A program made the position numbers and the translations under genes. From positions 62,001-123,496 of the forward strand of contig MEDY01000161.1 in NCBI GenBank assembly GCA_001724265.1: 61,496 nt of DNA, given 5' to 3'. This DNA comes from Rhizaria sp. SCN 62-66. Taxonomy: Eukaryota. The notes beneath the pieces are model-generated. The model did not search any database. It was not told the origin of the DNA and saw nothing but the letters and a program-made list of their open reading frames with translations. Shown in pieces: positions 820-59,940 of this stretch. Position 1 is the first letter of the stretch; every line of letters starts with the position of its first letter.

Positions 820-3314
820 TCAGAGTCCCATCTCGTTCTTGCAGCGCGCGAGCATAGTGCGAATATCCGTGAACGAAGGCCGCAGATCGGGCTGCATGAA
901 GCAGCGGCCGAGCATGGTAAGGAAGAGCGGTGAGAGTACCCGTGAGGCGGTCGTGCCGCCGCCCGCGCTGCGGCCCGCCAGCTCGTCCGCTGTGGGCACC
1001 TTGAGACGCGTGCCGCTCTTGCCGACGGCGTCGACGAGCTCAGCCACGGTGTAGCCCTGGAACGGCTCCTGGCGCGCGGTGAGCTCCCAGCACAGTACGC
1101 CAAACGAGTACACGTCCGAGGCCTTGGTGGGCGTCGCGCCCAGCAGCACCTCGGGCGCGGACCACGCGGTTAGGAAGCGGTGGCCCAACATGACTTCGGC
1201 GAAGGTCTTGACGGACTTGACGCCGACGTCACAAACCTTGATGCTCATGTTTTCGTCCAGCAGCACGTTGCGCGACTTAAGGTGCACATGGATCTGCCCG
1301 CGCGCGTGCAGCGCCTCCATCGCAGTCGCGACTTCGCTCGCCACACGCACGATCGTCGCCGGGGAGAGGTCCTTGGCCGTTTGGCGCAGCAGGTCGAACA
1401 GGGAGCGGCGCGCAACGTACTCCGACACCGCGTACACGTGGTTGCCCTGTGAGGCAGAATAGACCAGAGTAAGACAGAGAGAGCAAGAGTGAGATAACAT
1501 GTACTCACAAAGGTTTGAGAAGATGAAACAGTGAAGTGATCAAACTATAGACAACAGACAGAAATATATATGCAAAGACGGACCTGTCGCGCAACGCCGA
1601 TGAAGCGCACGATGTGCGAGTGCGCGATGCGGGACTTTTCGTCGAGCTCGACGGCAAGCTCCTCAACCGAAATGGCACGCATGCCCTCGAGGCGGAAGCG
1701 CTTGACGAGCACGCGCTGGTCATCCATCACGCCCACGGCTGTGGTCCACACGCCCGTGTCGCAGAGGATCTGCTGCGCGCCGCCGCTACCGCCGTTAGCC
1801 GCGGTCGCGGCCGCAGCAGCTGCGGCCGCCGCGGAACCGCCCTCGGCCTGCGCGGTAGCCGTCGCCGCGGCAGCCGCGGCGGAGGCAAAGAAGGCGCGCG
1901 GCAGCACGAGGCGGTCCAGGTCGATGCGCTGCGTGGTGGCGGCCGAGCTGAGCGCAGAGGGCTGCAGGAAATGGCTGTTGCCGCGGCCGCCGCCCGCGGG
2001 GGCGGAGATCTGCGCCGAGTTGTAGCGCGCCGCCGCGTCGCTGGCGCTGCCGGCGTCGGCCAGCAGCGGCACCGAGCCCGCCGCACCGGCGCCGTCGCCG
2101 CCGTACTTGCTGCCGCCGGCGCCGGGGGCGCGGAGGTCGATGCCGTCGCGGCCGACCGAGAGCAGCGGCGCGCCGGAGGCCGGGAGCGCGGTCAGCGCGC
2201 CGTAGCCGTCGGCCGAGAAGTTGAGGTTGCCCGCGGCGGCGGCGGCCAGGTCTGCGCTCGAAGCCGAGTCCGGCAGCGAGGGCACCTCGGTGGCGGGGTC
2301 GACACTGATCTCGTCGCCGATGAGCAGGATGCCAATGAGCGCCCAGTCAAGCAACAGCAGCAGCGGGAGAAATTCAGAGACGGCGAGGATCGACACGATC
2401 GTGATGCCCAGCAGGTTCGTCGCCAGACTCTGCTGCCACTCATACGTGATCGACAGGATGAAGACGACGCCGCGCACTAGGCGCGCCGCGGACCACACGG
2501 CGAAGACGACGGTGATCTTGTACACCAGCTCGCGCGCGAGCGGAGACGCCAGCGCGGCGTTGCGGAGGATGCGGAAGGCAAAGACGGCCGCCACGGCCAG
2601 CGCGCAGAGCGGGAAAAAGGTGTTGACGATGGCGCATGACCACTGGATGTAGTCGGACATGGACTCGTCGAAGACGTCCTCCTTGATCGCGAGCAGGAAG
2701 TAGAGGATGAAGACGATGACGTACTGCAGGAACGTCAGGGCGAAGAAGCACAGCCAGGCGATGGAGCGAAAGCGCACGCGCGAGCGCACAATGCGCTGCG
2801 CGTGGGAGAAGACGTACGTCTCGAGCCAGGTGAGGAAGATGATGACGTAGATGGAGATGGTGCACTGTTCGGGCAGCGTGAAGAGCACGGCCTGCAGCGG
2901 GTACCACATCTTGTTCGTGCGGCCGACAAGGCTGAACATCGACAGCACGGCAAAGCCCAGTGTGCGGACGGCGAGGTGGCCCGACACGGCGCGGAAGAGC
3001 ACCTTCTCCGTCACGGCCTGGGTGGAGAACTGATTGATCTTGATGTTGCGGTACACCGAGAGCACGAAGAAGACGGCGTAGACCGTGGCCAGGAAGTACA
3101 GCGTGACGCCGAGACGGTCCAGGTCAAAAACGCGGTACGACGGGGCGACCCTGCCCACGCCTGAGTCGGCCGCGGCCTCGGCGAGCGCCGGGAGCACGAC
3201 GGACGCGGCCGAGGAGGCGAGCGACGACACAGTCGCCGCCATGGACGACACCGCAGCCTCCGTGTGCGAAGACACGGACGCCGCCAGCGCGCCGAAACGG
3301 GAAGAAAACGGCAT
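820..3314 (-). CDS. 7TM (THH1/TOM1/GPR137-like) receptor domain fused to a TKL-type pseudokinase, ~785 aa; exons 3314-1584, 1446-820
   Basis: About seven hydrophobic helices in the N-terminal half. A 137-bp GTCCGT..CAG intron (1447-1583) joins ..GVARQ to GNHVYAVSEY in frame. Kinase motifs: VLVK, HVHLKSRN, DVG, WSAPE, SDVYSFG, RPSF. Ends in TGA. Confidence 0.85.
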
Positions 3315-4197
3315 AAGCGGGGGGCGGCGCGCGAGGGCGACAGGGCGGCCGGAGAGGCGGGGGAGCGAGCGGGCGAGCGAGTGAGGCTGCTAGTGGCGTA
3401 CGTGACGAACAGTGAGACGAGGTCACAAAATCCGGACTCAGAAGGGGTAGAGGAGCTGAACAGAGGTAGTAGCAAAAGGGGTAGCCGTAAGAGTACATTT
3501 AAAGCATATGTGTCGGGCCATGGCTGCAGCAGTGAACAGAGAGTGTCGGTTTCGTAGGGGATTATGAAGGAGCGCAACGCGAGTGCACGATCACCGAACT
3601 AGCCTGCTCTTGAAGAAGGTTTTTGACAAACTTCCACAAGTACTATAAACCGTGATTTTTCACTGAATAGAGAATAGACAGCGTAAATTCTGAAACCAAC
3701 GTTTGTAGTGTTCTTGACGCAGAAATGCAAGAGAACAACTCCGAATCACTGAGGGCTACGTGGCACCCGTCCCCTCCAAGCTTGTGGCGAGGATGACAGA
3801 ACAGCGTGATGAACAGGTTCCTTTGCCACTTCCCACGCTCGCGTGTTTGCAATATGAGACGATATTCACTTCTTTCGAGTTATTTCATGTCATTTGGTGT
3901 ATTGCTGCATATACAGTCTCATGTCTCACCTTCAAACACGACTTGCACTTTTGCATTCTCCATGTGTCTCCCAACCCCTCGCATTGTTTAGCGTTTCTGG
4001 GCGATTGTACAGACGACCCGTTTTGCGTCACCGATACAGACTTAGCCGAGGCTTTTTTGTGCTTTGTTTCGTTCTTAGTAGTGGTTTTCTCCCTTCCCGA
4101 GCGCTTTCCCGCGCGCACCGACCCCTTCAGCTGACAGTCGCGACACGTCGTTTGAGCTGCTTGCTTCCTCGCGTCCGGCGCCTGAGCGTAGACCGCC

Positions 4198-11088: not shown

Positions 11089-11637
11089 TTAATTCAATGA
11101 GATGTATTTTTTTGTTAATTTTTGTTGTATTTCATTTTACACCCTTTTAAACATCTATGTAAAACAACCTCACTGCGAACTTTTTCAGTGCGCGGGATTA
11201 AGTAATGTTCTGTTTTCGTCGTTTTTGCGTTCATATTTGTTGATGTTGTTGTAGTCTCATCGTACAACGGTGGCTGCAGCAGCGTTGCAATGAGCGTGAT
11301 GTAAATTTGTCTGAATCAAGCCACTATTTTGTCGTCATTTGATCGCACTGTGACAATTTTTTTCCTTACTGTCTCAAAGTGAAGATGGACCTGGTAACAT
11401 AGTTGTTGATTACATGATTCCCGATTCATTTTTATCTGCGTTTGTCGATTCAGCTTGCCATATTTAATAGTTACATGTCCCCTTAATTACTGTCTTGGAA
11501 ATCCGGTCTTGTTGGCTCTTGTTTTTTACCGTCCATGCGGCGGCTTTAGTTTTTGTCGTTGCAAAGAATTTACATTAACGTTCGATAAAAGCATACAGAT
11601 ACTTGCAGATATTAACAGAGAAATACTTGACACAAAG

Positions 11638-14600
11638 TCATTCCTTTTTCGCATTCGTTGCAACTCCTTTAGTCCCGTCCAAATGAACGTAGTACAGAGG
11701 CAGCTTCTTGCCATTTTCAATGTCATCCGCTGTCACACCCTCCTCACCTTTGTTGATTTGCTACTTCGTCAAAGGCTTCTCCTGTGTAATTTCTTGCTTA
11801 ACGTAGGCATGTGTCGACATGATTACAATATCGACGTCGATCTCGTCACCCTTCGGCAATCCCAGTGTAATCCCCAACAAACGCTTGAACTCTTGAACCT
11901 TTTTGTAAACGCGCCCAGGGAAAAAAGAATGCATATTGCCGATTGTGAATTGGATTAGAGCGAGGCGGGGCTTCTTGATTCTCTCACCAGGGATAGGCTC
12001 CTTGATAAACCCATGGGGATGATCAATAAAGTATGAGTCAAAGTCAGGATGAGTTGGGGACAATGCATCAAGACGCCAGGTTAAACGCGCTAGAGCAGAG
12101 TGACCTGCGTCCTCACGTACATCACCGGAAAAAGATCGAAGGGAGCACAGCGAGTCTGCAACAAGACGATATGGTGTGTCGTCACCATCGAAAGTTGCCA
12201 CGTTGACGTTGCGTTGCTGATGCTTCTTTGGATAGCGGCGCAAGTACGACATATCGATAGGAGGACGAGTAACTTCGCCGTAGGCGTCCCGAGGTACGTA
12301 CTGCTCCACATGTGCCATCTGAAGCAACATAAAGACATCCCCCTTGGGACGATTTGGAAGCAAAAACATAAGATCGAGCAGGTTGCCAGAGTATCCAAAC
12401 GAGCAAAGGCGGTCAAATAAAGCCGTCGCAGCCTCATCGCTTGTCCATTCAAGGCCACAGTTACTGAGATATTTGACATAAACAAGCACTTTTGCAGTCA
12501 TCTTCTCGATGTCATGCTTAGTTGTTGTTATCTTGCACTTTTTGATCCACTGCGGAAGCGCCGTCTCGGGTTTTGGCATACTGTGATCAGCCCTGCTCGT
12601 AACGATGTAGTGTGAATTCATGAAAAAAATACCATCACCTGAATACATTTTGTCCGCTAAACCCTCCCGAAAACAAACATACCGTAGCTTGTCGAAAACG
12701 TGTTGGTCAACACGGTTAATCAGGCGCTCCAAAGCTTGTTCTGCTCCCAGGAAAGTGGAAACTCCATATGCAGGGTTTTCCGCATTACTGGCATGTTCAG
12801 CTTTCAAGGCTACATGAAAGCTCCCAGCGAACAATTTGACAAGTTTATCAACTTTGGGTAAATCTGCCAAACGCTTCTTGCCTAAGAGGCGAAGTCCTTC
12901 GTCGATCTCTTCATATGTCCACGCATATGACCATAGATCAATAACATTTCCGTCCTTAGGAAAGTCTTCAACACCCTTGCTGATGTTCCTATAATGTCGT
13001 ACATCAGGAGATGTTGCAATTACACTTGTCGCAATATAGCTCTCATGGTAAAGAGGCAGAATATCACCCTCATTGGGATCAAAGAGGTACACAGTGTTCT
13101 GCTTGCGTAACCATCTCTTAGCATCGTCTGGCTTCAGCGTCATCACCGTGTCGCTGTTGTGCGCGTACAGATAGACCCCGTCGCCTGCATTATGACAAAG
13201 TACGTCCATCCCGAGCTCAAAACGTGCGACGTACCAAAGCAAGTTAAGCATCACAGTCTTGCCAGTACCAGGCGGGCCGCGAACTAAACATGTGTTCGCA
13301 AGCCCGTACTATTTTGCCCGACGTGCGCACAGCTGAGACAACAGAAGATTGTACAAATTAGTATGCGACTTGCGCAGCATCAATAAAGAAAGACCCTGGT
13401 TACCAGGAAGAAATTTGCCACCAAAAGGAAAGCTCGCTTTGGTATTGGGTTTGTCAAGAAGCATTGGAGCGGCGAGAGTATGGAAGAGATCAGACTCAAC
13501 CTCGTCCCATTTTATTGAAGCATGGGCTGCAAGGAACGCAGTGAAATTGGCTTGGATGCCAGCACCAGCCATCTTCATTGCGTCACCCAAGGAAGGCATA
13601 TACCTCCGGAGCTTGTTTTCCACTTCTGCAACATGAATCGCCGCTAGCTCCAGCTGAATCTGTGCCGCCTTCTTGTTTGCGGGATGCTCGTTTAAGTGCA
13701 TCTTTAGCTGTAGGTGATCGCGCGCAGCTTGAGCTGACATTAGGTCACGCTCGATAGAAGCGACCTCAAGCTTTTGAAATACGACGCCGCGGTTCGCAAT
13801 CGCATTCTCGACTGTGCGTTCAGCCGTCGCCAACCTAGACGCGGCATTACTGAGCTTAGAATCATGTGCGACCTCGTCTCTGTCTTCGGGTGACACAGCA
13901 TTTTGGGCTTGATTCGCGACGTTATAAGCTCCACGGGCCTCCTCGCAATCGACTCGAGCAATTGCAATATCAAAGTCAGCAGACTTCAGGTTGAACTCAG
14001 CTTCAGCAACATGATACTCGGCTGTGGTCTAGTTATAGGTAGCTTTAGCTCGCGACAACAATTGTTCAGTGTCAGGAGAGAAGAGAGCCGCAACGTCGTT
14101 TGGTGCCTTCGCGGAAACGATCTGAGCACGACGCTTTGCCTCCGTAGCGTCAGCCATCACCGCCGCCGCCTCCTTGACTGCAGCTTTAAGCTCATCCATC
14201 TGCTGCTTAGCCTCTTCCTTCGCCAACTCGGCCTCTTCCTTCGCCAACGCAGCCTTAGCTATATCGAGATTAGCTTGAGCAACTGCCACTTTTCGCTCAG
14301 CATTCGCGGTCTAAGCAGCAACGCGGTCGCGTTCAACTTCCGTGGCGGGGGGTGTTGACGTCATAACAAGCGTGGAATCAGCCGCATCGAGCAACTTTTG
14401 ATAGTGTGTAACAAGTAACCACCGCCTCTCGATTATCCTTTTGGCAGACGCAATACCTGACTGATACCGCGCGCGATAATCCCCAGCGATGCAAGCCAGC
14501 GCGGGAAGGACCACCGAGGGAGCAAGGAGGTCCGCCATGGGAAGGGGCTTGGAGTCGAGGAGAGTAGGGGGGGTTAGAGCAGAGGAAACGCCGACGGCGA

Positions 14601-14781
14601 CAGCGGACGCCCGACCGTCAGCGGTGCGAAGGGTGTCGACCGAGCCAAAATGGGGGCTACTAGGGACGGCGGAGCAGCTGGAACTTGCAAGCGAAGATGC
14701 GCAGGACATGTGTGCGGCAAGGCCTAGCCGTTCATTATCAGACGACTGCAGCTCAGCGGAGAGCGGCCTTGAGGGTCTCAT
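11638..14781 (-). CDS. Crinkler/RHS-type effector-like protein (coiled-coil + P-loop NTPase + REase-like C-terminus), ~1047 aa, with four in-frame TAG codons; start uncertain (frame open to 15087)
   Basis: Four track ORFs (14311-15087, 14029-14289, 13309-13896, 11761-13254) share one frame and are separated only by single TAGs. Motifs: Walker A GPPGTGKT at 13278-13255, Walker-B-like VYLFD, ATSPD..Y, WTYEEI, then PTHPDFD..LIQFTIGNMH resembling a CR-REase. The frame continues past the last TAG to TGA at 11638-11640. Confidence 0.75.
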
Positions 14782-15505
14782 TGTGACGAGCGGTGCCAAG
14801 GAACCTTCTGGAAAGTTTGTGAATAAAAAGGGAAGCAGGAGCGTAGCTGTGGGATATGACGTAAAAAAAATTAGGTATGAAACTAATAAGTCTATGATGT
14901 CAGTCGTCACGTTTGTCAATCTAGCGTTGCCGTAGTCCACTACATGCACTATTCGATGACGGCTCCGACATGAGATCACTTGTGGGGCCTGCGGACCCGA
15001 ACCAGCGAGCGAGAAGTTAGGCCGGTTTTGACCGACGGACAGGACTGTGAGCGACTGTGGTGACCATGTGAGCAACTGCTGGCTCATACGTTTACGAGGA
15101 GGTTAGCACAGCAGATTCTACGCGATAGCTGAATGCAGGAGAAGAAATATCACGAATTTACGTGGCCGCATATATGCGGATTTGTGCATGTACTTCTATT
15201 CCCCTATTCGCAAAGTCCTGAGGCAAACATGTCGTCTGCTTCTGCCCTCAGGGGCATGAGTAAGGCCCACTCGTGGCTGATTCCGACCAAGACAAATACG
15301 CACTTAGTGATCGCTACAGGGGGTATTATTAAGCGTCATAGTGTATTTAGTGCATATAACCAGAATAGCTATATTTCTCTTCCTAACTTCATTTTTATCA
15401 CATCTAACTCCTGCCCTCTCTGTCAACTCTCTTTGGACCCTCCACATTGCTCTTCCTAAAAGGTCATGGCGTTCCCTGCAGACTGCAATGAGTGCGCACA
15501 AAACC

Positions 15506-16000
15506 TCACTTGCGACGTAGAGACTTGTTCAGTGCCTCTTTGAGCTCCGCGTCAGTGATGCCGAGCATCTTGCTGAACCCCTTGATCACGAAGTGCGCCG
15601 GCATGGACTTGAACGCGAAGAGCATCGCCTGCATGCGCGACATCATCTTGGCGGCCGAAACTCCCTCGCGGCGAACATCGACTCTGCCCACGTCATTCAA
15701 GCAGCCCGCTAGTGTGCAGAGAAAGTCATGTTGGCGCAGCCGAGCGCGATATGACTTGAGGACGGTGAGGTCGAGTGGCCAGAGCAGGGACGTCCCGTGG
15801 GCAGGAACGTAAAGTAGCGTCACGTCGTTGTGATAACACAACTTGCGGAACAACGCTCTGAGGTGGCTGCGAGCGAAGTCGCAGACGAGCACATGGTACA
15901 GTTCTTGTAGCGGCCCACAAGCGTTGCGTCGCGCAGGAGCTGCACGTGCTCAGTGAATGACTCGCCGGTCGACATGGAGCTGCTGTTCACCTGAACAATT
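15506..16000 (-). mobile_element. Decayed pogo/Tigger-like DDE_1 transposase fragment
   Basis: LVCDFARSH..LLYVPAHGTSLLWPLDLTVLKSYR matches the DDE_1 pattern (LxxDxxxxH..P.xxTSxLQPLD). An upstream piece, NSSSMSTGESFTEHVQLL, lies in another frame (frameshift near 15900). No TIRs recognised. Confidence 0.65.
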
Positions 16001-16009
16001 ACGGCAAGT

Positions 16010-16620
16010 AAATTGCCGGAGCAAGGGGTCGAAGGCGGCGCTAAGGGCAAAGTCTGCAGCGTCTTCTTCACTACCTGGCGTAAAAACGCAATACAGGGCA
16101 TCGTACGCCGCAGTGCAAATGTCATCATCGATATCCTGCTAGGAAATGTCATCATCGATATCCTGCTAGGAAATGTCGTCATCGATATCCTGCGTGCCGC
16201 CCGCGTGGCGCTCGAGCGCAGCGCGCAGCACGGGCACGAAGCCAGAGACGAGTGAATACGGCACGGGCGGGGTGCACATCTGACAGAGCGTGGCAATTGC
16301 TTAGAACAACATCGTTTGACACTCCAACGTGACAGACATTTTTGTTCTTGCTTTTTTTGCTGAGAGTCCTGCGACAGCTGAACTGAGTAAGCGAGCAGTT
16401 TGGTTAGCGCGGCATGCCTGGTGGGGGCATCAAGTGCCGAGGATGAAGCAATCTCATTAATGAGTTTTAGTAGACGAAGCGAAAGTTGGTTATTCTGGCC
16501 TGCAAGAAAGCACATGCACAGGTTCCCGATTGTGTCGCTCCCAACAAGCACGGCACACCCAGCTTCGACGCTGAAGTTGCCCCCCTGGTGCGAGATTTGC
16601 TCAAACATCGCGACAACCAG
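16010..16620 (-). pseudogene. Possible degraded ARM/HEAT-like helical-repeat coding fragments
   Basis: Minus-strand pieces GFVPVLRAALERHAG..DDDICTAAYDALYCV and QLSLRLLKLINEIA..TRHAALTKLL look helical-repeat-like. They lie in different frames with an intervening TAA. Confidence 0.3.
16117..16193. repeat. 27-bp tandem repeat, ~2.9 copies (AAATGTCATCATCGATATCCTGCTAGG)
   Basis: Units start at 16117, 16144 and 16171; the third is truncated and has one substitution. Confidence 0.95.
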
Positions 16621-17459: not shown

Positions 17460-20129
17460 ATGCTTGCCAATCCGCCCCAGGCTTCAACGGGTGCTGACCT
17501 GGCGTTTCCGCAGTCTCAACGTCCGCCATCTATGACCCTTAAGGTCCGTTGCTTTTTTCTCTTTCGCTCTAGGCTATATTCCATCTTTCATTGCTTTCAA
17601 CTGCTTGCTCGCTGCCATCGATCCCTCACGGGCATCTCCCTTGCACCACCATTCCCCATCACTATTTTTCCTGTTTAGGTTCACTGCCGCGAGATGCACA
17701 CGACGCTGCGCGTTGGCGGTGGCGAGCAGAACTTCAAATGGCTTGCCTTTGCGGTGCGCAACCTGTACGCGCAGCGGCACCCTGCGTATGATGTGGAGCA
17801 GTTCACTCCCGTGCTCGTCTGCGACAGCGAGCGTCGCCCTCTGTTCCCGCAATCAACAATCTGCGAGTGCGTCACCGACGGCGACGACGTCTTTGTTGAT
17901 CTTATTGGTCCTACTGCGTCGCTCAACGACGCAAACCGCGCGCGCGAGCGCAGTCTCTGGGAGCAGTATGCGCACAACCCTCCGTCGCACTTCAGCTCCA
18001 CGACGTTCTTCTTCGACGCCTCGGGCATGAGCGGGCTGCAGGGAGAGACCGTGGGTATTTTCGGCAACTTTAATGCTTGGTCCGTCCCAATCCCCATGCG
18101 CCCCATCGACAAGCACGTCTTCGAGCTCACGTTCGAGCTCCCCGTCGGCGCAGAGATCTGCTTCAAGTTCGTCCTCAACGACAAGCACGTCACTTCCACG
18201 CACTACCCCTTGATCCTGGACGAGAACGGTGTGCAGATGAACTACGTGCGCGTTAAGCTCCCGACCATTCCTTTGCTGGAGCCCGCGCAGAACGACCCCA
18301 CGCTGCTCGTCCCCGCGCCCGCGCTCACCGCCAACTCGTCCCGCATCGCGCGCGCCGCCGCCGTGAGCGCCGCCGCGGCGCTGCCGCCAGGGCTGGGCCC
18401 GCAGGCGCTGGCGCAGCTTGCCGTGTCCGCGCCCGACGTTGCGGCCGCGTTGCGCGGGCTCCCGCACAATGTCGACGCCGCGCCCGCCGTCGCCTTGGGC
18501 GTCGGCCTGCACCTCTCCTCCAAGGACTGGGGCGCCGCGGCGCACGCGGCCGTGGCTGAGCGCATCACGCGCAAGCCCGCATTCGCGCGCGCCGCCGCCG
18601 CGGTGCCCGCCAAGACGCTGTCGGTGCGCGTGACGGGCACGTTCGAGGGCGTGCAGCGGCTGAGCCTGGACATGCAGCGCCGACTGCTCGACTCGGACTG
18701 GACCAGCATTAACTGCCGCGACGTCGCGCGCGCGCCCGAGGAGCGCGAGGCTATCAAAGCCGTGCTGTGGGCGCACTCGGAGGAGCTGCGCCTGGCGTTC
18801 CGCTCCTACAGCTCGCTCGCGCCCGACTCGGACATCTCGCAGCTGTCCATCGTCACCTTCGCGCACGTCATGCACCTCTGCGGTGTCACGGACCCGCGCA
18901 TCTGCGCCGCCCGCTTGGAGCGCGTTGTAAACCCTGCGCTGATCGAGGAGGAGGAGACCCTGGCCGCCGCGGCCGCCGCGCGCCCGGGCGCCGTGCCGCT
19001 GCAGTCCCGCACGCTCGTCTCCGTGCGCCCCACCAAGGGCGACCCGTTCCATCCTGACACCCGCTTCGACCGCGCGGGCTTCTATTCGGCCATCATCCGC
19101 CTCGCCGCTGTCCAGCGCCCCGCGCTGCCGCCCTCGCAGGCGCTCGAAAGCTTCCTCACCGAGAACGTACTGCCCAACATCCTCCGCGCGGCCGCGGCGG
19201 CGCCCGCCAGCAACAGCGCCGCCGCGGCCGCCGCGGCCGCCGCCGCCGCTGCGGCTGCGGCAGCTGCGACAGGCGCCGCGGGCGCTGCGGCTGCGCCGGA
19301 GACCGACGTCTCACAGCGGATGCTGTCGCCTAAGGTGCAGAAGGTGTTTGCGCAGAACGCGCAGCGCCTGTGGTCGCTGTTCTCGCGCTTCGCCACCGTG
19401 CGCGAGCGTGGCGAAAGCAAGGGCACCGCCGCGCGCACCATCTCGTCCCGCGAGTACGAGGCCATCCTTCACGTACGTTTTGATGCAAGTTCACGCAAAC
19501 GTCAAATCAGCGTCATTGTCTTTTCACTCCTTTAGATCATATTTATTTTCTTCTTTTGTGTTCTCATCTTGCATTTGCATTTTCGATTTTTTTTTTTTTT
19601 TAAATATTTATAGGAATATAAGCTGTGCGACCAGTACCTCTCCCGCCGCCAGGCGCTGACGGCCTTCGCCCAGTCGGCCCGCGCTGCTGCCGCCGCCGCT
19701 GCCGCTGCTGCTGCGGGTGCCGCTGCGACGGCCGCCGCTACTGCCGCTGCGGCGACCCCCGGCGGCGTCACCGTGCCTGTGGCTGGTGCAGACCCCCAGT
19801 CGCTGACCACGCGCCCCACGCTCGCCACCGCCGCGGCCGCCAACGCCATCGCCGCTGCTGCCGCGTCCGCCGCGGCTGCCGCTGCCGACGCCGCCGCGAT
19901 GGCCTTCGCGGGCGGCCCCGCTGTGGCGTCCGCGGCCTCGGTCGCCGGCATGGACCTGAACCTCGAGGTGACGTATCCCGAGTTCCTTGAGGTCGTTGCC
20001 CGGTTCAGCGAGGCGCGCTTCCAGGGACCCAACCCGGCGCCGACGTCGCGCGCACACCTAGACTTGGCCGATAAGATCGAGCTCGCGCTGCAGCGCATGT
20101 TCCCCACCTCAGGCAGCCACGACATGTGA
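17460..20129 (+). CDS. Protein with an N-terminal ubiquitin-like region, a CBM48/AMPK-beta-like glycogen-binding domain and EF-hand-like C-terminal helices, ~797 aa; exons 17460-17543, 17679-19472, 19614-20129
   Basis: Phase-0 GT..AG introns. ETVGIFGNFNAWSVPIPM..FELTFELPVG..FKFVLND is CBM48-like. LNLEVTYPEFLEVVARF is EF-hand-like. Ends in TGA. Confidence 0.75.
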
Positions 20130-20491: not shown

Positions 20492-22339
20492 TTACATTGC
20501 CGCGTGCGAGATATCATTACTGCCTCCAAAGATGTCCCCAAACAGCGTCTTCTCGCTTCTACTGCGGCGGCCCTCACGCATATTGAGACGACTGCCGCTG
20601 GCAGCTCCGGCGTCCGACGCAAGGCTGAACTCGCTCGCGCAGTAATACATCGCAGGTAGCAGCGTTAGCCCAGTAATCGTTATCGGGATTGACAGCAGAA
20701 GCGCCGTAAAGGCCTCACCGAGCACGCCGTAGGCGCTGTTATTGTTGATGCGCGAGCTGAAGCGGTGCAAGTAACCCTTCTCAGCCGCGCTGGCCATCAC
20801 GGCAACCGCGAGGACCTTGCCGAGGACAAAGCAGTCCCAGAACATGCCCGCCGTGAGATGGCAGCTGTCGGCGTCGGCCGTGAGCACGGACCGCAATCCG
20901 CGCGCAAGCCCACGCATCCAGGCCCACGCCGAGCCCAGCTGCCCTGCGCCCCCAGCGCCGTTAGCGGTGGCCGCAAGCAGGTCGCCAGCGCCCTGGATTG
21001 CGAGCCCGCGGAGTCCGTAGAGCGCGAAGGCCGCGGAGATGACTGTGAGCGCGAGGTAAAAGGCGCCCGTCGCGAAGTGCGCCGCGGCGGGCTTGGGCGC
21101 GGGGTGCGGCGCAACGCGGCGCGCGGCGAGGTACATGCTGAACGCGAAGGATAGACTCACAAACCAGGACAGACACTGGAAAAGGAGCAGGCCGCCGAGG
21201 AAAAGAGGCAGCTGACGCAGACCGTCGGACCACACTGGGCAGACGCGGGAAGTACGGTGATGCAACATCAAGATGAGCGTGATACCAGTTCAAAGCGAGC
21301 ACATGTTATCGTTTTTTTTTTTTTTTTAAAAAAAAGTCGGTATGTTTCTGTAATAATAAGTGTGGAACGAATTATCATGAAATAAATAGATTCTGTTTGT
21401 CTTGAGCCGCAGATACGTACTCCACGATGCCTTATGGCCGCTGCTTCCCTCATTCATCAACATGCCGCGACTCGCAACGCTGCCGTGGCTGCGGCCGCTT
21501 ATGCGCGCAGCGCAGCGGTCCTCCGCCCGCGCGACGCAGAGCCGGTAGAGGTAGCTGGCAACATGCGCCGTGCACATGACATCGCCTAGCACGAGCGACC
21601 ATAGCAGGAAGCGCGCCCCGGCGGTGTCGGTCAGACTGGCCCAGAGGGCTGCCCACGGCGACGGCGCCAGCGTACGCCACAGCCACGTCCACGCGCGCTG
21701 CGGCAGCGAGGCGGGCGCGAGGACCGCGGCGAGCTTACCGGGCAGCGGCAGCGGCGCCGTGGCGAGCCAGGAGAGCGTGTGCGGGAGGACGAGGAAGAGC
21801 GAGAGTAGCGCGAGGCCTAGGTACAGCCCCGTCAGCAGGTCGTTCTGGCTGCGGTCCGAGCCTGGAGCGCTGCCGTGGGCTGCAGCAAGGCGGGCAGAGG
21901 CGCGGCGCGAGGCGGGAAAAAGTGAGGACTGCGCGGGTGCGGGTGCGATGGAGCGGTTGGAGTCGCTGCCCATGTGCATGCTCGCGATGCCGCCGCTGGA
22001 GTTCTACCCGTCAGAGAAAAAGGAGAACGGGGCAATATCGCTGATCGAGGAAAAGCGCGGCAAAGAGAAATAGTCGGTAAAAAAGCCCTTGTTCTGCCGA
22101 GCTTGGTTGGCGGCGGCCGTAGCGGCGACGGCGGCGCGTGAGCGGGAGGCCGACGAGGGACGCGTGCGAATCGTGCCGCTGCTGCGCGGGGGCGACGGAG
22201 ATAGGCTACGCGGCGCCCGGCGAGCAGGGGACATGGAGCCTGACGCTTGCTGCGGTAGCGCCTTGGACTTAACGATGGCCGGGTGTGCGTCGGAGCGGCG
22301 CGCGCTCGTGCGGCGGCCGCGGACGTCAGACGTGGACAT
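20492..22339 (-). CDS. Multipass membrane protein of unknown function, ~553 aa; exons 22339-21421, 21234-20492; one in-frame TAG at 22004-22006
   Basis: ORFs 22004-22339 and 21326-21979 are in the same frame across a single TAG, with uniform GC-rich composition. GTACGT..CAG intron 21235-21420 restores the frame (W-M-W). Several hydrophobic helices. Ends in TAA. An alternative start exists at 21979. Confidence 0.65.
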
Positions 22340-28981: not shown

Positions 28982-31900
28982 ATGTTTCGTCTGCGCACTC
29001 TCTCGCGCGGCTTTTCATTCCGCGCCGCGCTTTATGCACCCCCGCGCAGCCTGTTTTCTTCATACCGTGGTCGCCGTGACCCTTTCGACCCTGACTTCCC
29101 AACTACCCACGGTCACGGCCACAGCCACGCTTACGACGCTGACAGCGCTCACAATTCCTCTACTCAGTGGTCCGGCGAGTTTGCCGCCCCGCGCCGCGCC
29201 ACCCGCGCCCGCACTGAGCGCATACGGTACGCCGCGAAGCTCTCGGACAGCGACGAGGCGTTGCTGGAGCTAGCCGACGCTCTCGGCAGCGCCGGCGCCG
29301 CCCGCTCCGCGCGCGCCCGCCTCGGCCCTGCTCCCCAGTCCGCCGCCCGCGGCTCCTCGGCCTCCAGTGGTGCGGCGGAGGCGTGCGTGGACGTGGGCGC
29401 GGCGCCGCGGTACTGGGACAGCCTGCGCCGGCCCGCCTCGGCCGCGCCGGAGCAGGACCTGCAGACGCTCCTGGGCGGCGCCTCGCCTTACGCCGCCGCG
29501 CGCGCCAACAGCGCGTCGTCTGCGACCCCCGCGCTGGCCTCGGGGCCGGGCGCGGGGCTGGGCGCGCGGCGGGCCGCGGAGGCGCGGCTGGGCGCGGCGG
29601 CGTTAAAGCTGCTTCCGCGCGCGGAGCGGGCCAGACTCGAGGCCGAGTTCGCGATGGGGCTGCTGACCGAGGCGGAGCTGTACGAGGCCGCGGCAGACAC
29701 GGCCGCCGTGCTGGGGCTGCTCAAGGCCGACGGCGACGACGCGTACACGGCCTTTGCGACTGCGAACGCGGCCCACGGTCGCTCTGCCCACGGTCGCTCT
29801 CATGGCCACGGCAAGGGGGGCCCCGGCAAGGTGGGCGCAAAGGACTACGCGACGCACATTAACAACGCGCGCTGGGGTTCCGAGCTCCACCGCGACGACG
29901 GCGGCGACGGCGACAATTACGGCAGCGGCGACTCCAGCTCGCGCGCAAGTGGGCAGGACGACGCGGCGCTCGCGCTGCTCCTCGCGCGCGCCCGCGGCCA
30001 GAGCGCGCGAGGCCGCTCCAGCGCGGGCACTGGCGCGGGCACTGGCGCGGGCGGCAGCGCCAGCGGCTCCAGCGCGGGCGACGAGGCGGGCCGCTTCACG
30101 GCGTCCCAGTTTGGGCACCTGCTCTCGCTGGGCTACAGCGTGGCCGAGGTCGGCCAGCTCGAGACGCACATTGTCGCGGGGACGCGCGCCCGTGGGGGCG
30201 GCGGCGGCCACCTGATGGACCGCGACGGCGTCTTCGCGGCCGCCGTGGCGGGTGCGGCGGACGAGGAGGGCGAGCGCGCGCGCTCTCGTCTGGGCCGCGA
30301 CCGCTCGCACTACGCGGCGAGCACCTCAGCCGGCGGCGGCGGCGGCGCTGGCTCCGGCCCGCGGTCGAGTCTGAACCCCGGGTTTGACCCCGCGGCGGCG
30401 GCGCAGCACGACCGCGCGGCCGCGGCGGACTGGGCCGAGGCGGAGGCGGAGGCCGCGGCGGAGGCGACGCTGGCGGCGATGACCGACGCCGCGCGCGGGC
30501 TCGGGCTGGGCGCGCGCGAGCAGCGCCGCCTGCGCCGCGAGGCCGAGGCCATTCTGGAGCACCGGCGCGCGGAGCGGTGGCGGCAGCGCGCGCAGGCCGA
30601 CCGCGAGCACGAGGCGATGCTCCGGCAGCAGCAGCGGCAGCAACAGGCCTCCGCTGCAACCAACGTCGACGCGGACGCCAGCGGCCCCGACTCTGGCCCT
30701 GGCTCTGGCTCTGGCTCTGGCTCTAACTCTGGCTACTCCTCGGTCAAGAGCGGGCCGGGCGCGGACGGTCGCGAGGTGCGGTTGGCGACACTGACGGTGC
30801 ACGATGCTGAGACGGGCGAGCCTATCGCCGTGGAGCGCCCCGACCGCGTCACGCGCGCCGCCCACGCCCACGCTCACGCGGCCGGCTACGACCACCTCGG
30901 CGGCGGCGGCGGCGCGCAGCGCGGCGGACACGGCGCGCGCGGCGCGCGGGGAGCGGACTGGAGCGCCGCTGCCGCCGCGAGGGCGGGTGCCTGCGCCGGC
31001 CCGGTGACCGAGGCCGTGATTGTCGAGGCGGTCGTCGTCGACCGCAGCGCCGCGCACGCTGCTGCGGGAGCCGCGCACGGCGCCGACGTCAACAGCGAGT
31101 GGGCCGCCGCGGCCGCGCGCGTGGCCGCACTGCGCGCCTCGCGCCCGGGCCGCTTCGCCGCCACCACCGCGCAGACCCAGGCTGAGGCTTCGGCCACTGG
31201 CGCGGGTGCGGGCGCGGGCGCTGGCGCTGGTGCTGCGAGGCGTGTTGTGTCATCGCGGCTGCTGAGCAACCCTATAATGCGCACCACGCACTCGTTCGCT
31301 CACGCTGCCACACACCACGCCTCTCCGTCTTACTACAACACCGGTGCGCGTGCGTACTCGACTATGCTCAGCTCTCCCATCAGCCCCGCCGCCTACCACG
31401 GCTGCTCGCACACCCGCGCGGTGACCGTGTACGCGAGCGCGGGCTTCTCCTCGAAGCGGCAGCGCGATGCCGCCCAGCGCTGGCAGCAGACTCTGCTCTC
31501 CAAGCTCGCCGACTCCAACGGCGCCGACGCCAGCAGCGCGGACACCGCTGGCGATGTCGGCGCCGATTCGTCGTCTTCGATGACTGTGAGCAGCCTGGAC
31601 GTCGCGGACCTCCGCAAGGCCGCGCGCCGCACGCCGACCCCCGCGCCCAAGCCCAAGAAGGAGCCCGTGGCGGCGACCGCGAACACGTTTGGCAACGGCA
31701 ACACCAACCGGCGCGTGGCGCAGAACAGTCATGCCGCTGCCGCGGCCGCGTACGAGGCCGAGGAGGCCGCCATCGTGGCAGCCGCGATCGCCGCGGCCGA
31801 GGCCGACGACGCTGCCGCGGCCGCTACGGCGGCTTCGTCTGTCCGCGCGAGCGCCAGGCACGTCGCCGTCACGCACGCGGGTGATATTGACGCTGACGCT

Positions 31901-33007
31901 GACGGCGACGCCGACGGCGACGCGTACATGTCACGGCTGATGTCGGCGCTCGACGACGGGCTCCAGGAGGAGCAGCAGTCGCTACGTTCCGCCGCGCGCG
32001 CGGCCTCGGCCGCGCTGCGCGCCGCGGAAACGGCGTCCGCGCTTGCCGCCGCCAACAGCAACGCCGCTGAGGACGACGACGAAGGCTTGCTGGACGAGAT
32101 CGAGAGCGACTACGACTCCGAGTGGGAATCCGACCTCGACACAGAGTACTACGATGATGACCACAGCGACCACGATGTCGCCGCGGGCACTGGCTCTGCT
32201 GGCGCTAGCGCAAGCGCGGGCGCGACTGTGGGCGCGGACGCCAACGTTGCTCTCCGGCCCGGTGGGCCCAGTCCCGGCGGGCGCGTCAAGGGCCCCGTCG
32301 AGTACGTGGTGACGGAGCTGGACGGCGAGGATGGGCTGGGCCTGACGCTGATCAAGACAGACGTGGACGGCAAGGTCGGCTTCGTCAAGACGCGCTTCCG
32401 CACCCGCGCGCGCGACGTTGTGGCGCAGTCGGGCGGGCAGATCTACAAGACGCGCCTGCGCGACACGTACAAGCTGTTCGAGGACCAGGCGCGCGAGCGG
32501 CTCAGCGGCGGCGTGGTCGACGAGGTAATGGAGGAGCTGAACCAGAACCCCACGCCCAGCTTCGAGGAGCGCGTCATCGCGGCGCGCGGCGACGACAACC
32601 CTGTGCCGAAGATGACCGCGCGCGCGATTGGCGGCGAGGCCATCGCGAGCTTCGACCTGGACGAGAGCGACCTGGTCGAGCGCTTCATCCGCGGCTCCGG
32701 CCCCGGCGGACAGGCCGTCAACAAGACGCGCAACTGCGTTTTCCTGCAGCACACGCCCACGGGCACGATTGTCAAGTGCCACCAGACGCGCTCGCTGTTC
32801 GAGAACCGCATGATCGCGCGCAAGATCCTCAAGCGCAAGCTCGAAGACCTCAAGGTCGGCAAGGGCAGCTACCTGCAGCGCAAGGCCGCGCGCATCCGCA
32901 GGCGCAAGAACAGGCACCGCCGGCGCTACAACAGCAAGATGCGCGCTGCCGAGGAGGATGGACATGACGATGACGAGTCGTACGACGACCCGAGAAGCAA
33001 GCAGTGA
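28982..33007 (+). CDS. MTRFR: RF-1 (GGQ) domain protein of MTRFR/C12orf65 type with a ~1200-aa N-terminal extension, 1341 aa
   Basis: C-terminal LDESDLVERFIRGSGPGGQAVNKTRNCVFLQHTPTG.IVKCHQTRSL.ENR..AR followed by a basic tail; GGQ at 32705-32713. Arg-rich presequence-like start MFRLRTLSRGFSF. Confidence 0.8.
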   Translation: MFRLRTLSRGFSFRAALYAPPRSLFSSYRGRRDPFDPDFPTTHGHGHSHAYDADSAHNSSTQWSGEFAAPRRATRARTERIRYAAKLSDSDEALLELADALGSAGAARSARARLGPAPQSAARGSSASSGAAEACVDVGAAPRYWDSLRRPASAAPEQDLQTLLGGASPYAAARANSASSATPALASGPGAGLGARRAAEARLGAAALKLLPRAERARLEAEFAMGLLTEAELYEAAADTAAVLGLLKADGDDAYTAFATANAAHGRSAHGRSHGHGKGGPGKVGAKDYATHINNARWGSELHRDDGGDGDNYGSGDSSSRASGQDDAALALLLARARGQSARGRSSAGTGAGTGAGGSASGSSAGDEAGRFTASQFGHLLSLGYSVAEVGQLETHIVAGTRARGGGGGHLMDRDGVFAAAVAGAADEEGERARSRLGRDRSHYAASTSAGGGGGAGSGPRSSLNPGFDPAAAAQHDRAAAADWAEAEAEAAAEATLAAMTDAARGLGLGAREQRRLRREAEAILEHRRAERWRQRAQADREHEAMLRQQQRQQQASAATNVDADASGPDSGPGSGSGSGSNSGYSSVKSGPGADGREVRLATLTVHDAETGEPIAVERPDRVTRAAHAHAHAAGYDHLGGGGGAQRGGHGARGARGADWSAAAAARAGACAGPVTEAVIVEAVVVDRSAAHAAAGAAHGADVNSEWAAAAARVAALRASRPGRFAATTAQTQAEASATGAGAGAGAGAGAARRVVSSRLLSNPIMRTTHSFAHAATHHASPSYYNTGARAYSTMLSSPISPAAYHGCSHTRAVTVYASAGFSSKRQRDAAQRWQQTLLSKLADSNGADASSADTAGDVGADSSSSMTVSSLDVADLRKAARRTPTPAPKPKKEPVAATANTFGNGNTNRRVAQNSHAAAAAAYEAEEAAIVAAAIAAAEADDAAAAATAASSVRASARHVAVTHAGDIDADADGDADGDAYMSRLMSALDDGLQEEQQSLRSAARAASAALRAAETASALAAANSNAAEDDDEGLLDEIESDYDSEWESDLDTEYYDDDHSDHDVAAGTGSAGASASAGATVGADANVALRPGGPSPGGRVKGPVEYVVTELDGEDGLGLTLIKTDVDGKVGFVKTRFRTRARDVVAQSGGQIYKTRLRDTYKLFEDQARERLSGGVVDEVMEELNQNPTPSFEERVIAARGDDNPVPKMTARAIGGEAIASFDLDESDLVERFIRGSGPGGQAVNKTRNCVFLQHTPTGTIVKCHQTRSLFENRMIARKILKRKLEDLKVGKGSYLQRKAARIRRRKNRHRRRYNSKMRAAEEDGHDDDESYDDPRSKQ

Positions 33008-40582: not shown

Positions 40583-41077
40583 TCATTGGGCCTGCTTCTC
40601 GCCCTCGCCCCCCGCGGCCGCAACAGGCTCCTCCGCGACGCTCTCGCGCAGCCAGCGCAGGTAGGGCGCGGAGCCGGCCTCGACGGGCAGCGCGATGAAC
40701 TCGGGGACCTGCGCCGGATGCACGCTCTTGACCGCGGCATACAACGCCTCGAGCCGCGTGCGCGTGGTCTTGATCATCAGCAGGCTCTCAGGGTCCTCTT
40801 CCACCGCGCCCTCCCAGCGGTACACCGAGGTGAGCCCCGGAAGCACGTTGACGCACGCGGCGAGGCGCGCAGTGACGACATGGCGCGCGATCGCTGGAGC
40901 CGCCGCGGGAGGCGCCGTCACATACACCACCACGGAGGGCGCGTCAGGGGCCACGACGCTCGGCGTGGCGGTAGACATGGAACGCAAAAAGACGGGGGTA
41001 AGTGTAGCAAGGCGCGACTAGGTGGTTTTGACGAGAGAGCGAGACAATGCGACTGAACGGCGAGACAACTGAAGCAT
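40583..41077 (-). CDS. CUTA: CutA1 divalent-cation tolerance protein with a predicted mitochondrial presequence containing an in-frame TAG (41018-41020), ~164 aa
   Basis: Core VVYVTAP..LAACVNVLPGLTSVYRWEG..E.LLMIKT..VKSVHP..VPE.IALP..YL.WL. In-frame upstream ATG at 41077 gives MLQLSRRSVALSRSLVKTT*SRLATLTPVFLRSMST. Under the standard code the start would be 40978. Confidence 0.9.
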
Positions 41078-41788: not shown

Positions 41789-42511
41789 ATGGCTTCCATG
41801 GCATTCAAGGGTCGCTCTTGGGTCAAGAACGTTATTTCCGACCCTGGCGTACGTATCTACCCTACTATCCATGCATTTTTACATCATTTCCTCCTTGCCC
41901 CATCATGCCTAGTCCCCCTTGCTTCTCCATGTTAATATCATCTTAGCGCTGTTTGCGCACCACAGTTTGCAATTAAATTTCAAAAATCACTAGACTTAAT
42001 TAATTATCACCTTTTTGTCTGCTTTATTTTCATTTTTTCCATCATTTAACACGCACAATGCATGCTCTTCTTGCTTACTTCTGTTCCCACTCCTTGAATC
42101 TTCATACTCGTCTCACCACAGAACTACCCTCTCCTGGCTGCCAACTTCGTCGGCCTGACCATGCTCGTCGTCTTCGGCTCCCGCAAGATCTTCACCCACC
42201 CTGACAGCCGCGTGTCGATTGAGGAGCGCTCCATCTCGGACGTGACCCCGACCCGCGCTGAGGACGCCCAGACCTTCCGTAAGCACTCCGGCTTCTTCGG
42301 CACCGCGCTCGCGCCCCTGGCCGACGCGCTGCACTCGATCACGCTCTCGGGCCGCGGTCGCCGCGACGACTTCTGGCACAAGGCCAAGCTCAACACCCCC
42401 GTGCCCACTCCTCTGGAGCACACCAACTACTTCGAGGACGGCCTCTTCAAGGGCGCGCAGCCCGCCGTGACCCCCACCGGCGTCATGCACGCCAAGGACG
42501 ACACTGACTAA
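41789..42511 (+). CDS. NDUFA4: NDUFA4/B12D-family mitochondrial inner-membrane protein, ~149 aa; exons 41789-41848, 42122-42511
   Basis: The spliced sequence WVKNVISDPG/NYPLLAANFVGLTMLVVFGSRKIFTHPDSRV matches the family pattern DP..YPL-TM-R....PDV. Ends in TAA. Confidence 0.75.
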
Positions 42512-49340: not shown

Positions 49341-49374
<34 letters not shown>

Positions 49375-55945: not shown

Positions 55946-55978
<33 letters not shown>

Positions 55979-57561: not shown

Positions 57562-58365
57562 GCACGCACTGCGCGAGGGCGCAAAGGTGCAAGCGACGCT
57601 TGAGCACTCCAGTGTTTCAATGTATAGATAATAGTCGTGACGCTTTGAAATGGCAGTCGACCTTAGTTTACTTGGGGTCTATTGTGCGACTTGAGGGCCA
57701 GTTGTGTCATCTTATTATGCTTTAACACTGTTTGATTATTGCTGTTTGATCATTGTTGTTCTTCAATAAACTTTGAATTTTAAAACAATTATCATTATTA
57801 TTTTTATTATTTTTATGCTGTCATTTTCTGATGTCTCGCAACTTTGTTGTTTCATATTTGTTTCATATTTACAGTAGGCTTATTTATTATTCACAAACGT
57901 GAGTCACGGCATGCCGCAGTTCTAAGACACATCGCAGACTCAAGCTTCATTATGCTTTTACCTGATTGCTACATTCATCATTTTTACGCGGCACCGTACG
58001 TGTCTGCTTCGATCCCCCGACAAAAGACAAAATACGTCTCCGTTAAAGATTTGAACTCTCGATCTAAATATCTAAATGATGCTCGTTCTTAGGCAAATGT
58101 GCGTATATTCATACCATATGTCTATGCGCAAACGTGCTTAAAATGTCATACGACTCAGTCAACTAAAATTACCAAAAACCAGGAGCTTTAAGTCGTACTA
58201 AGCATAACTCAAGAGAAATAGGGTGGATCAATAGCGGAGAGTGTGACAGCGCATTAGGGAGAAGCAGTTGAGAAAACACTTATTCATGACCCTAACTCGA
58301 TGGATAAGCACACGAAGACATAGCGCTTTAACTATGAACTTGAAGTTACTAATAACATGTTGCAC

Positions 58366-59940
58366 TTAGAGCTCGTCCTTGAGGCCCTTAGTGGCCGGAG
58401 CGGCGTCCTCAGCAGCATCGGTGGCAGCGGCCGCAGTGGCGGCGTCCTCATCGTCGTCGTCGTCCTCGCCTTCGGCGTCGGCGTCGGCGTCGGCATCGGT
58501 GCCGTCAGTTACGACGGTGTTCTCGTCGTACTTGACCGAGAGCTCGGCGCGCTGCTGCGGCGTGAGCACGTAGACTTCGTCGACGAGCAGGGCCTTGTCC
58601 AGCGACCAGACGCCGCCCTCGCCCAGCGTGCTCTCCTGCACGGCTAGCAGCTCCTTGACGCTGGAGCTGGCGCTAGCGGAGCCACCGGCGGCAGTGGCGG
58701 CCACGGCGGCGGCGGCCTCCTTGTCCTGCTTGCTCTTGGTCAGGTCCTCAGCGACCTCGCACTTGCCCGCAAGCACGTCATGCTCCATCTCGGCGTTGTG
58801 CGACCACCAGAGGCCGAGACCGAGGTAGCGCGCGCCGACCTTGGACTTGTGGGCCTGGAGCCAGAGTGCGGGGATGTAGATGCAGTCGCCCTTGCTGAGC
58901 ACGGCCTCGTGGAACACGACCTTCATCATGCCCGGGTGCAGCGTGGCGTCAACAGCGTCGACGTTGGTGTTGACGAACTCGCCCGTCACGGGGTCCTCGG
59001 TGTCGACGGTCACAAACTCATCCGTCGTCGCCGGGTTCAGCAGCGAGAAGGTCTGCGAGCCGTCGAGCACGCAGTGCATGGCCTCGGAGTGCTCGTGGTG
59101 CAGCACTGAGCGCGCGCCGCCGGAGTTGAGGTGCAGCACGGCGCGCGAGAAGGCGGGCGCAAGCGGCGCGCACTGCAGCGAGGTGGGCAGCACCACGTCG
59201 GCCTTGAGCGAGGGCAGCAAGTCCGACACGTAGATCGGCTCGGGCAGCTCGCCGGTCGCCGTGGGGATCGTGTAGGAAGCCACAAACTGCGAGAGCGTAG
59301 AGTTGATGGGCTCCGTCAGCAGCGCGAGTGTGCGGTTTTCCTTCTTGAAGGCCTCGACGTAGGACTCGATGGTGTCGGCACCGTGCGCGGCGGCGAGGTA
59401 CGCGTCGGTCCACTTGGTGAAGGCGGGCATCGAAGCCGCGCCGCCGCGGATAATCACGGCCGCGGACTCGCGCACATACTTGGCGAAGAAGTCCGCCGGT
59501 GCGGGGAACGCAGCGAGCTCGGGCACGGGGATCTTGAGGTTGGCCGACGCGAGGGGCTTCATGTGGCCCGCCCAGGCGCGGGCCTCGTTCTGGATCGCCT
59601 CGATCTCGGCCGCGTCCATCAGGTACTCATCCTCGCCCTCCAGTCCGCCCTGCTCCGCGAGCGCGTCGAGCAGCGCGTCGCCCTCGCCCTCAGGGTAGCC
59701 ATCGCCCTCGGTCTCGACGTCGGCCTCGGGGTCAGCGTCGTCGTCCTCGTCAGCATCCGCACCGGCAGCGTCGGCGGCGTCGGTGGCGGGCTTCTTCTCG
59801 TCGGGGGAGCCCTTGTCCGTCACGGTTCCGTCAGCAACAGCAGCCGCGGCGGCAGAGGCGTCAGCAGAGACGGACACACTCGCACTGGCGAGTAGCACGA
59901 CCAGCAAGGCCACAAGCGAGAGAATCGACTTGGCACGCAT
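58366..59940 (-). CDS. ER-lumenal JmjC/cupin-like domain protein with signal peptide and KDEL, ~524 aa
   Basis: MRAKSILSLVALLVVLLASA signal peptide; FFAKYVRE..VIIRG..PAFTKWTDAYL; SVLHHE; LSKGDCIYIPALW; ends KDEL-TAA. Confidence 0.85.
   Translation of the reverse strand: MRAKSILSLVALLVVLLASASVSVSADASAAAAAVADGTVTDKGSPDEKKPATDAADAAGADADEDDDADPEADVETEGDGYPEGEGDALLDALAEQGGLEGEDEYLMDAAEIEAIQNEARAWAGHMKPLASANLKIPVPELAAFPAPADFFAKYVRESAAVIIRGGAASMPAFTKWTDAYLAAAHGADTIESYVEAFKKENRTLALLTEPINSTLSQFVASYTIPTATGELPEPIYVSDLLPSLKADVVLPTSLQCAPLAPAFSRAVLHLNSGGARSVLHHEHSEAMHCVLDGSQTFSLLNPATTDEFVTVDTEDPVTGEFVNTNVDAVDATLHPGMMKVVFHEAVLSKGDCIYIPALWLQAHKSKVGARYLGLGLWWSHNAEMEHDVLAGKCEVAEDLTKSKQDKEAAAAVAATAAGGSASASSSVKELLAVQESTLGEGGVWSLDKALLVDEVYVLTPQQRAELSVKYDENTVVTDGTDADADADAEGEDDDDDEDAATAAAATDAAEDAAPATKGLKDEL

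Follow-up and report, generated by a model that had tools for sequence, protein, structure and literature searches.

Does UAG still end translation in the eukaryote from which this DNA came? The sequence examined, hereafter the window, is a 61,496-nt stretch of contig MEDY01000161.1 (positions 62,001 to 123,496 of the forward strand) from GenBank assembly GCA_001724265.1, deposited as Rhizaria sp. SCN 62-66. Its minus strand holds a gene (11638–15087) belonging to a multi-copy family of P-loop nucleoside triphosphatases (NTPases), in which four TAG codons stand in a frame of 1,149 codons that is free of TAA and TGA. An earlier note on this DNA had proposed that UAG is a sense codon while UAA and UGA remain stops, based on six in-frame TAGs in three unrelated genes, and had taken UAG for a minor synonymous codon, probably for glutamine. 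The core of that proposal was supported by paralogues of the NTPase gene and by the gene ends of the window, whereas the spread over three genes, the glutamine assignment and the status of a minor synonym were not. We consider it likely that UAG is not a stop here, if the variant in which it is unassigned and read by near-cognate transfer RNAs (tRNAs) is included, and we favour, with less assurance, the narrower reading that UAG is no termination signal and is translated, with UAA and UGA still serving as stops.

TAG codons in the NTPase family

All six TAGs were found on the minus strand where the earlier note had placed them, in frame with the open reading frames (ORFs) that it described, and the frames holding them contain no TAA, TGA or frameshift. 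Four of them, at 14311–14313, 14029–14031, 13309–13311 and 11761–11763 (residues 259, 353, 593 and 1109 of the 11638–15087 frame), fall within sequence homologous to other family members. The first lies directly 3' of the conserved motif VERDRVAA, at a codon that reads AAG, ACG, TCG or TAG in paralogues, and the second lies in a coiled-coil region. The third precedes the motif LVRGPPGTGK by eight codons, at a place where relatives have H, Q, R, S or G. After the fourth, the same frame runs on into the conserved C-terminal motif DIxxGKKLP[LF][YF]Y, also present in two related metagenome loci (L001 and L002), so that coding sequence goes on past this TAG in the window copy; a database protein 76% identical to the window copy (P0006) stops at the same place. 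Introns were rejected as the cause of the family TAGs, since each TAG replaces a single codon in the paralogue alignments.

A metagenome scan recovered 11 family loci (L001–L011). Identical pairs were merged (L001 with L003, L006 with L007) and L010 was set aside as a possibly chimeric contig, in which a family fragment (L010:1-3165; identity to L001, 92%) adjoins an Amidohydro_2 gene and, on the opposite strand, a gene for an MFS transporter, leaving nine distinct copies, namely the window copy and eight metagenome loci. Over the 6,483 codons of these nine copies we counted 32 TAG, 0 TAA and 0 TGA in frame, compared with 72 TAG, 215 TAA and 431 TGA in the other two frames, where TAG is the rarest of the three. 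Because the family ORFs were delimited by TAA and TGA, tblastn alignments independent of ORFs were used as a check. These held 17 TAG, 5 TGA and 5 TAA, and in every copy the homologous body is covered by alignments that stay in one frame; eight of the ten TAA and TGA codons lie at query residues ≤83, in an upstream part that is not coding, and the other two in the last third of L007.

We then compared these counts with simulations of unconstrained substitution for six paralogue pairs, each with its own observed substitution spectrum (2,000 runs per pair). For L001–L002, the new stops expected were 5.05 TAG, 4.16 TAA and 2.10 TGA, and those observed were 7, 0 and 0; the fraction of runs with neither TAA nor TGA was 0.0005 (6.3 expected), and it was 0.001–0.027 for the five other pairs. 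Across the simulated pairs, 3.6–6.3 TAA and TGA codons were expected per pair and none was seen, although the six pairs are not independent of each other and represent two independent paralogue clusters. Indels between close paralogues all keep the frame (e.g., 12 runs in L001–L002 and 10 in L006–L008). Moreover, some TAGs recur across paralogues: three copies have one at column 109 of the alignment and three at column 192, and further shared TAGs stand at columns 148, 302, 716 and 1247, with that at column 302 common to L002, L005 and L011, which are 36–60% identical. TAG therefore arises in frame about as often as mutation without constraint would produce it, while selection still removes TAA, TGA and frameshifts, and it is in this sense that it behaves as a free sense codon in the family. 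In-frame UAG was accordingly found in coding sequence whose frame selection keeps open, within one gene family only. Close paralogues (synonymous divergence, dS, ~0.18–0.30) have nonsynonymous to synonymous rate ratios (dN/dS) of 0.66–1.08 overall and 0.47–0.91 in the NTPase core, and the family is thus only weakly constrained. Its guanine-cytosine (GC) content at third codon positions (GC3) is 0.52–0.6 against 0.85 in host genes, and its overall GC is 0.48–0.56 against 0.46 in host intergenic sequence.

No family TAG lies on an invariant column, as the earlier note had said of its own six TAGs; they occupy variable columns with mixed residues. Codons opposite TAG in close paralogues include CAG (three columns), GAG (two) and TGG (two; columns 123 and 348), together with AAG, TCG, CAC, CCG, GAT, CGT, ACT, GCT and GCG. 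Glutamine has a slight plurality among them, which C-to-T transitions alone would also give, and the earlier assignment to glutamine was not upheld, as TAG aligns with CAG, GAG, TGG, AAG, TCG, CAC and others in the way that any mutational neighbour would. The residue for which TAG would stand can therefore not be inferred from the paralogue alignment; were it glutamine, the code would equal NCBI table 15.

The main coding body of the window copy (11638–14475, minus strand; GC3 0.52; TGA end at 11638–11640) comprises a coiled coil, a STAND-like P-loop NTPase and a C-terminal region. The P-loop GPPGTGK[ST] is nearly invariant across the family, and invariant tryptophan codons are intact in all copies. 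An AlphaFold model of the family protein had a mean predicted local distance difference test score of 66.8, and its top Foldseek matches were CED-4 (E 4.2e-05) and NLRP7 (E 6.1e-04), with low TM-scores (0.27/0.41). The Walker A motif and an NB-ARC/NACHT-like fold, in a model of moderate confidence, place the protein among STAND/AAA+ P-loop NTPases. Pfam gave no family beyond the Walker A level for family members (E up to 10), and the RHSP and Crinkler profiles (PF07999, PF20147) matched none of 12 members at E up to 10, whereas the nearest Atlas clusters by language model include ones in which 13–17% of members carry RHSP or Crinkler domains. The family is thus like Crinkler, RHS-type and STAND NTPase families in being multi-copy and fast evolving around a P-loop NTPase core, and differs from Crinkler and RHS-type families in lacking their Pfam profiles, with the language-model neighbours as the only link. 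A homologue search among proteins of near-equal length with the 1,149-residue frame found none; restricted to shorter proteins, it returned ten relatives, fragmented by gene callers that apply the standard code (the database proteins P0005, P0006, P0008, P0014 and P0015 begin or end at TAGs). Searches of GTDB genomes and IMG/VR turned up no relative of the family.

Gene ends and the remaining in-frame TAGs

If UAG does not terminate, it should also be missing from gene ends. TAG ends none of 21 genes in the window (TGA ends 14 and TAA 7), and this recount agrees with the earlier one, which had found no TAG among 19 models. Given that TAG makes up 0.20 of the three stop triplets in intergenic sequence, the probability of 0/21 is ~0.009, for a small sample. 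Every ORF of high GC3 that is ended by TAG is antisense to a known gene, and the family copies themselves end in TGA or TAA. A small gene at 42098–42511 (plus strand), with a TAA end, a GC3 of 0.93 over its last 60 codons and a weak B12D/MLRQ match (E 0.0011), was apparently missing from the earlier count.

Two further TAGs, 1545 and 19533, look like terminators but do not end genes, as they lie inside GT..AG introns. The first is held by an intron of a TKL-type kinase gene (1447–1583, minus strand). The second was rejected as a true terminator because it falls within a 141-nt in-frame intron (19473–19613, plus strand) of an AMPK1_CBM gene; the intron itself ends in a TAG at 19611, and the gene ends with TGA at 20127–20129. 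Among the assembled contigs of the metagenome and RNA runs, none joined across either intron.

The claim that in-frame TAGs occur in three unrelated genes is secure for the NTPase gene only, since the TAGs at 41018 and 22004 lie upstream of conserved parts. TAG 41018 (41018–41020, minus strand) stands 19 codons upstream of ATG 40960, the start of a complete CutA1 gene (40583–40960) that matches Pfam profile positions 1–98 of 99. Because a complete CutA1 starts at this downstream ATG, the TAG is probably in the 5' untranslated region, while an alternative ATG at 41077, upstream of the TAG, would yield a presequence-like extension of CutA1. TAG 22004 (22004–22006, minus strand) stands in frame with a 111-codon ORF upstream of it and, downstream, the conserved membrane part at the C-terminus of a host-type gene. 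Third-position GC is 0.75–0.8 on both sides of it and no GT is available as an intron donor; however, an ATG occurs eight codons after it, and the single homologue found among 1.84 billion representatives spans residues 140–281 only, downstream of the TAG. A contig identical to the window in this region is present in run X4. TAGs upstream of 28982 and 51810 were rejected as coding for their low-GC, non-periodic flanks.

For the four family TAGs of the window, no variant was among those listed for runs X2 and X4, which is a weak point. RNA contigs of run X12 cover 13725–13878, 14670–14931 and 11203–11337, none of them over a TAG, and run X16 gave next to nothing.

The host, the upstream region and nearby repeats

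The window is gene-dense and eukaryotic, with long genes that are mostly without introns, few GT..AG introns (137–141 nt), and a GC3 of ~0.85 in coding sequence versus an intergenic GC of 0.46. It is unlike ciliates in this respect, as GC-rich long genes with introns of 137–141 nt contrast with the ciliate genome style. Genes identified include the TKL-type kinase, a cNMP-binding/RGS protein, a GH47 mannosidase, CwfJ, an ankyrin protein, uL30, CutA1, an FAD oxidase and a Cupin_8 protein. A further 1,341-residue protein (28982–33007, plus strand) has an RF-1 (peptidyl-tRNA hydrolase) domain at residues 1224–1320 as its sole Pfam match, and thus an N-terminal extension unusually long for that domain. 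DNA near-identical to the window is present in bioreactor and wastewater metagenomes of several studies. Among named relatives, the GH47 domain scores best against a diatom (584 bits, 39% identity) and oomycetes (498 and 471 bits, 35%), with all others at only ~360–390 bits, and uL30 resembles kinetoplastid sequences less than those of opisthokonts and plants. The GH47 match offers a weak lead towards a stramenopile-like host.

The first ~204 codons of the 11638–15087 frame are not coding in relatives, where L001, L004 and L011 have TGA and TAA codons and changes of frame, and runs X2 and X12 carry a 2-nt insertion within them; on these comparisons, this stretch is a putative conserved non-coding or separately spliced upstream region. 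It belongs to a repeated region (14476–16003, minus strand) with 74–87% DNA identity to L001, L003, L004 and L011 (matching segments L003:6216-7307, L004:478-981 and L011:1524-2573, with part also inverted in L011), and in the relatives it does not form a single open frame. This ~1.5-kb region may serve as a promoter or first exon, or may be a segment of a larger repeat, and GC-rich flanking segments have been duplicated along with the family copies.

The same neighbourhood holds a remnant of a DDE_1 (pogo/Tc5-like) transposase (15509–15949, minus strand; profile positions 77–146 of 177, E 6.2e-06), which appears truncated or dead because an in-frame TGA precedes it. One contig of run X2 joins 15351 to 16386, without 1,034 nt of the window (15352–16385), and read depth over 15312–15712 is 151 (X2) and 84 (X4) versus ~3–30 nearby; the 15352–16385 region appears to be a repeated element whose insertion is polymorphic. 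A 27-nt unit is present in three tandem copies at 16117–16197, inside a 262-codon ORF (15820–16608, minus strand; GC3 0.59) with no Pfam match. Downstream (3') of two family copies lie GC-rich plus-strand ORFs, L002:3507-5015 and L003:3108-3878, which are open only with TAG readthrough; they hold four and two TAGs, respectively, with no TAA or TGA, have a coiled-coil-like C-terminal half and match no Pfam family. We kept the first of these out of the argument for its lack of a Pfam match and its implausible N-terminus.

Competing explanations and known UAG codes

Several observations weigh against a UAG that is translated, the main difficulty being that conserved host genes hold no TAG in 12,597 codons. 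The same genes have 414 CAG, 36 CAA, 462 CTG and 56 TTG codons, and from the ratios TTG/CTG (56/462) and CAA/CAG (36/414), a glutamine synonym at equilibrium would be expected tens of times. With 0 TAG against 414 CAG, the codon is far rarer than an ordinary minor synonym, contrary to what the earlier note had supposed. A tRNA search of the window and the 11 loci found none, and Rfam gave no match either. The window lacks an eRF1 gene, and its RF-1 domain protein (28982–33007) is of organellar/bacterial type. All secure in-frame TAGs lie in one almost neutrally evolving family, and some of its copies carry damage: in the last third of L006/L007, a TAA precedes a change of frame. The ends of the database proteins P0007 and P0012 diverge from the family, and in a contig of run X2 a 1-nt deletion shortens the T5 run at 11900, within the window copy. 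The metagenome loci may come from a species other than that of the window.

One alternative is that UAG is simply unassigned, with eRF1 reading it poorly, no dedicated tRNA, and near-cognates slowly inserting a mixture of residues, so that the codon is tolerated only in weakly expressed, fast-evolving genes. We hold this to be unlikely but worth serious consideration, as it fits the absence of TAG both as a stop (0/21) and in the conserved codons, its neutrality in the family, and the lack of any single favoured amino acid opposite it. A copy with six TAGs (L002) would be made very inefficiently under such decoding, however, and nothing in these data tells near-cognate decoding from a low-abundance dedicated tRNA(CUA).

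The code could also be standard, with the family TAGs repaired in RNA, for instance by adenosine-to-inosine (A-to-I) editing that turns UAG into UGG (Trp), a process known from filamentous ascomycetes. In Fusarium and Neurospora, premature UAGs in otherwise intact genes are restored stage-specifically by such editing (PMC11156358, PMC10776026), and as in the window copy, the affected genes have in-frame UAG and no other stop. Fungal editing favours U at position −1 and often targets UAG (PMC11156358), and Fusarium graminearum has 71 described 'pseudogenes' of this kind (PMC10776026). Editing would account for the tolerance of TAG alone and for the TAG-free conserved genes, and TGG is aligned with TAG at columns 123 and 348. 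In the fungi, however, UAG stands for an ancestral UGG, whereas only these two TAG columns face TGG in close paralogues here and most face other codons (CAG at three, GAG at two, CCG, CAC, GAT, etc.). Three to six edits would be needed per messenger RNA, the absence of TAG from the 21 gene ends is not predicted, and the best named relatives of the host GH47 gene are stramenopiles, not ascomycetes. We therefore regard editing as improbable.

It is very improbable that the copies are dead pseudogenes, with TAGs arising as nonsense mutations by chance or through repeat-targeted C-to-T change (repeat-induced point mutation, RIP) on CAG-rich, GC-biased ancestors. Such a history might seem suggested by a multi-copy family of GC3 0.52–0.6 in a host of GC3 0.85, by dN/dS near 1, by frameshifts or a TAA in some copies, and by TAG opposite CAG at several columns. 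Dead copies would not, however, lack TAA and TGA where 3.6–6.3 are expected per pair, keep the frame through every indel, or retain their invariant tryptophan codons in all copies. Neither does the dinucleotide composition point to RIP: TpA/ApT is 0.56–0.72 and (CpA+TpG)/(ApC+GpT) is 1.18–1.32 in eight copies, the opposite of what RIP leaves, for which the thresholds are about 0.89 and 1.03, respectively. Many TAGs also face codons from which they would need transversions (GAG, AAG, TCG).

Equally hard to sustain is the idea that the family is a mobile element or virus that evolved in another host with sense UAG, its copies here being recent and unexpressed and the host code standard: the copies do share a ~1.5-kb upstream repeat and lie next to a DDE_1 remnant, the X2 contig lacks the piece of 1,034 nt, and base composition is unlike that of host genes, but no relative turned up in IMG/VR or GTDB genomes, the flanking GC-rich segments were duplicated with the copies, the GC of 0.48–0.56 is near the host intergenic 0.46 as expected of weakly selected resident genes, and the 0/21 TAG terminators are left unexplained.

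If UAG is translated, its decoder would be a tRNA of anticodon CUA or, after loss of UAG recognition by eRF1, near-cognate tRNAs. The codon may be young or poorly decoded, and genes under strong codon-usage selection would then avoid it completely. That host genes are under such selection is shown by their GC3 of 0.85 versus an intergenic GC of 0.46; a young or poorly decoded UAG could therefore be kept out of them and yet drift in a weakly selected family. Tentatively, the window may derive from an uncultured, possibly stramenopile protist early in UAG reassignment, in which the codon no longer terminates and is translated, conserved genes have yet to take it up, and the nearly neutral NTPase family is the only tracer that reveals it.

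Known systems offer both likenesses and contrasts. In Iotanema spirale (Fornicata), UAG encodes glutamine while UAA and UGA are stops, and UAG in conserved genes maps to glutamine with high likelihood (PMC5304391). The present case is similar in that only UAG would change meaning, with UAA and UGA remaining terminators, and unlike it in that conserved genes hold no UAG and no residue is assigned. The rhizarian exLh (Sainouroidea), in which UAG encodes leucine, likewise shows a change of UAG only, but it has 384 in-frame UAGs in 71 conserved genes (PMC5304391), against 0 in 12,597 conserved codons here, which again tells against a translated UAG. In exLh, UAG is rarest in highly expressed genes and avoided by ribosomal-protein genes, from which its authors infer inefficient decoding (PMC5304391). 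It is a rhizarian, whereas the best named relatives of the host GH47 gene here are stramenopiles. Among ciliates, UAG has been reassigned apart from UAA in Oligohymenophorea sp. PL0344 and phyllopharyngeans (PMC10553269, PMC11687900). A literature search by title found no nuclear code change reported for stramenopiles and no relevant case from activated sludge.

Reassignment of UAG alone is thus on record for Iotanema, the rhizarian exLh and some ciliates, and the present case, if confirmed, would join them, possibly as an independent origin caught at an early stage. Only a few lineages are known to have nuclear codes with a changed UAG and an unchanged UAA, and each case tests how eRF1 and tRNAs separate the two codons. 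An early UAG reassignment, if true, would count as a natural intermediate in the capture of a stop codon, in a new lineage and in a state where UAG is free of termination but almost unused; such a state is predicted by both codon-capture and ambiguous-intermediate models and has rarely been observed.

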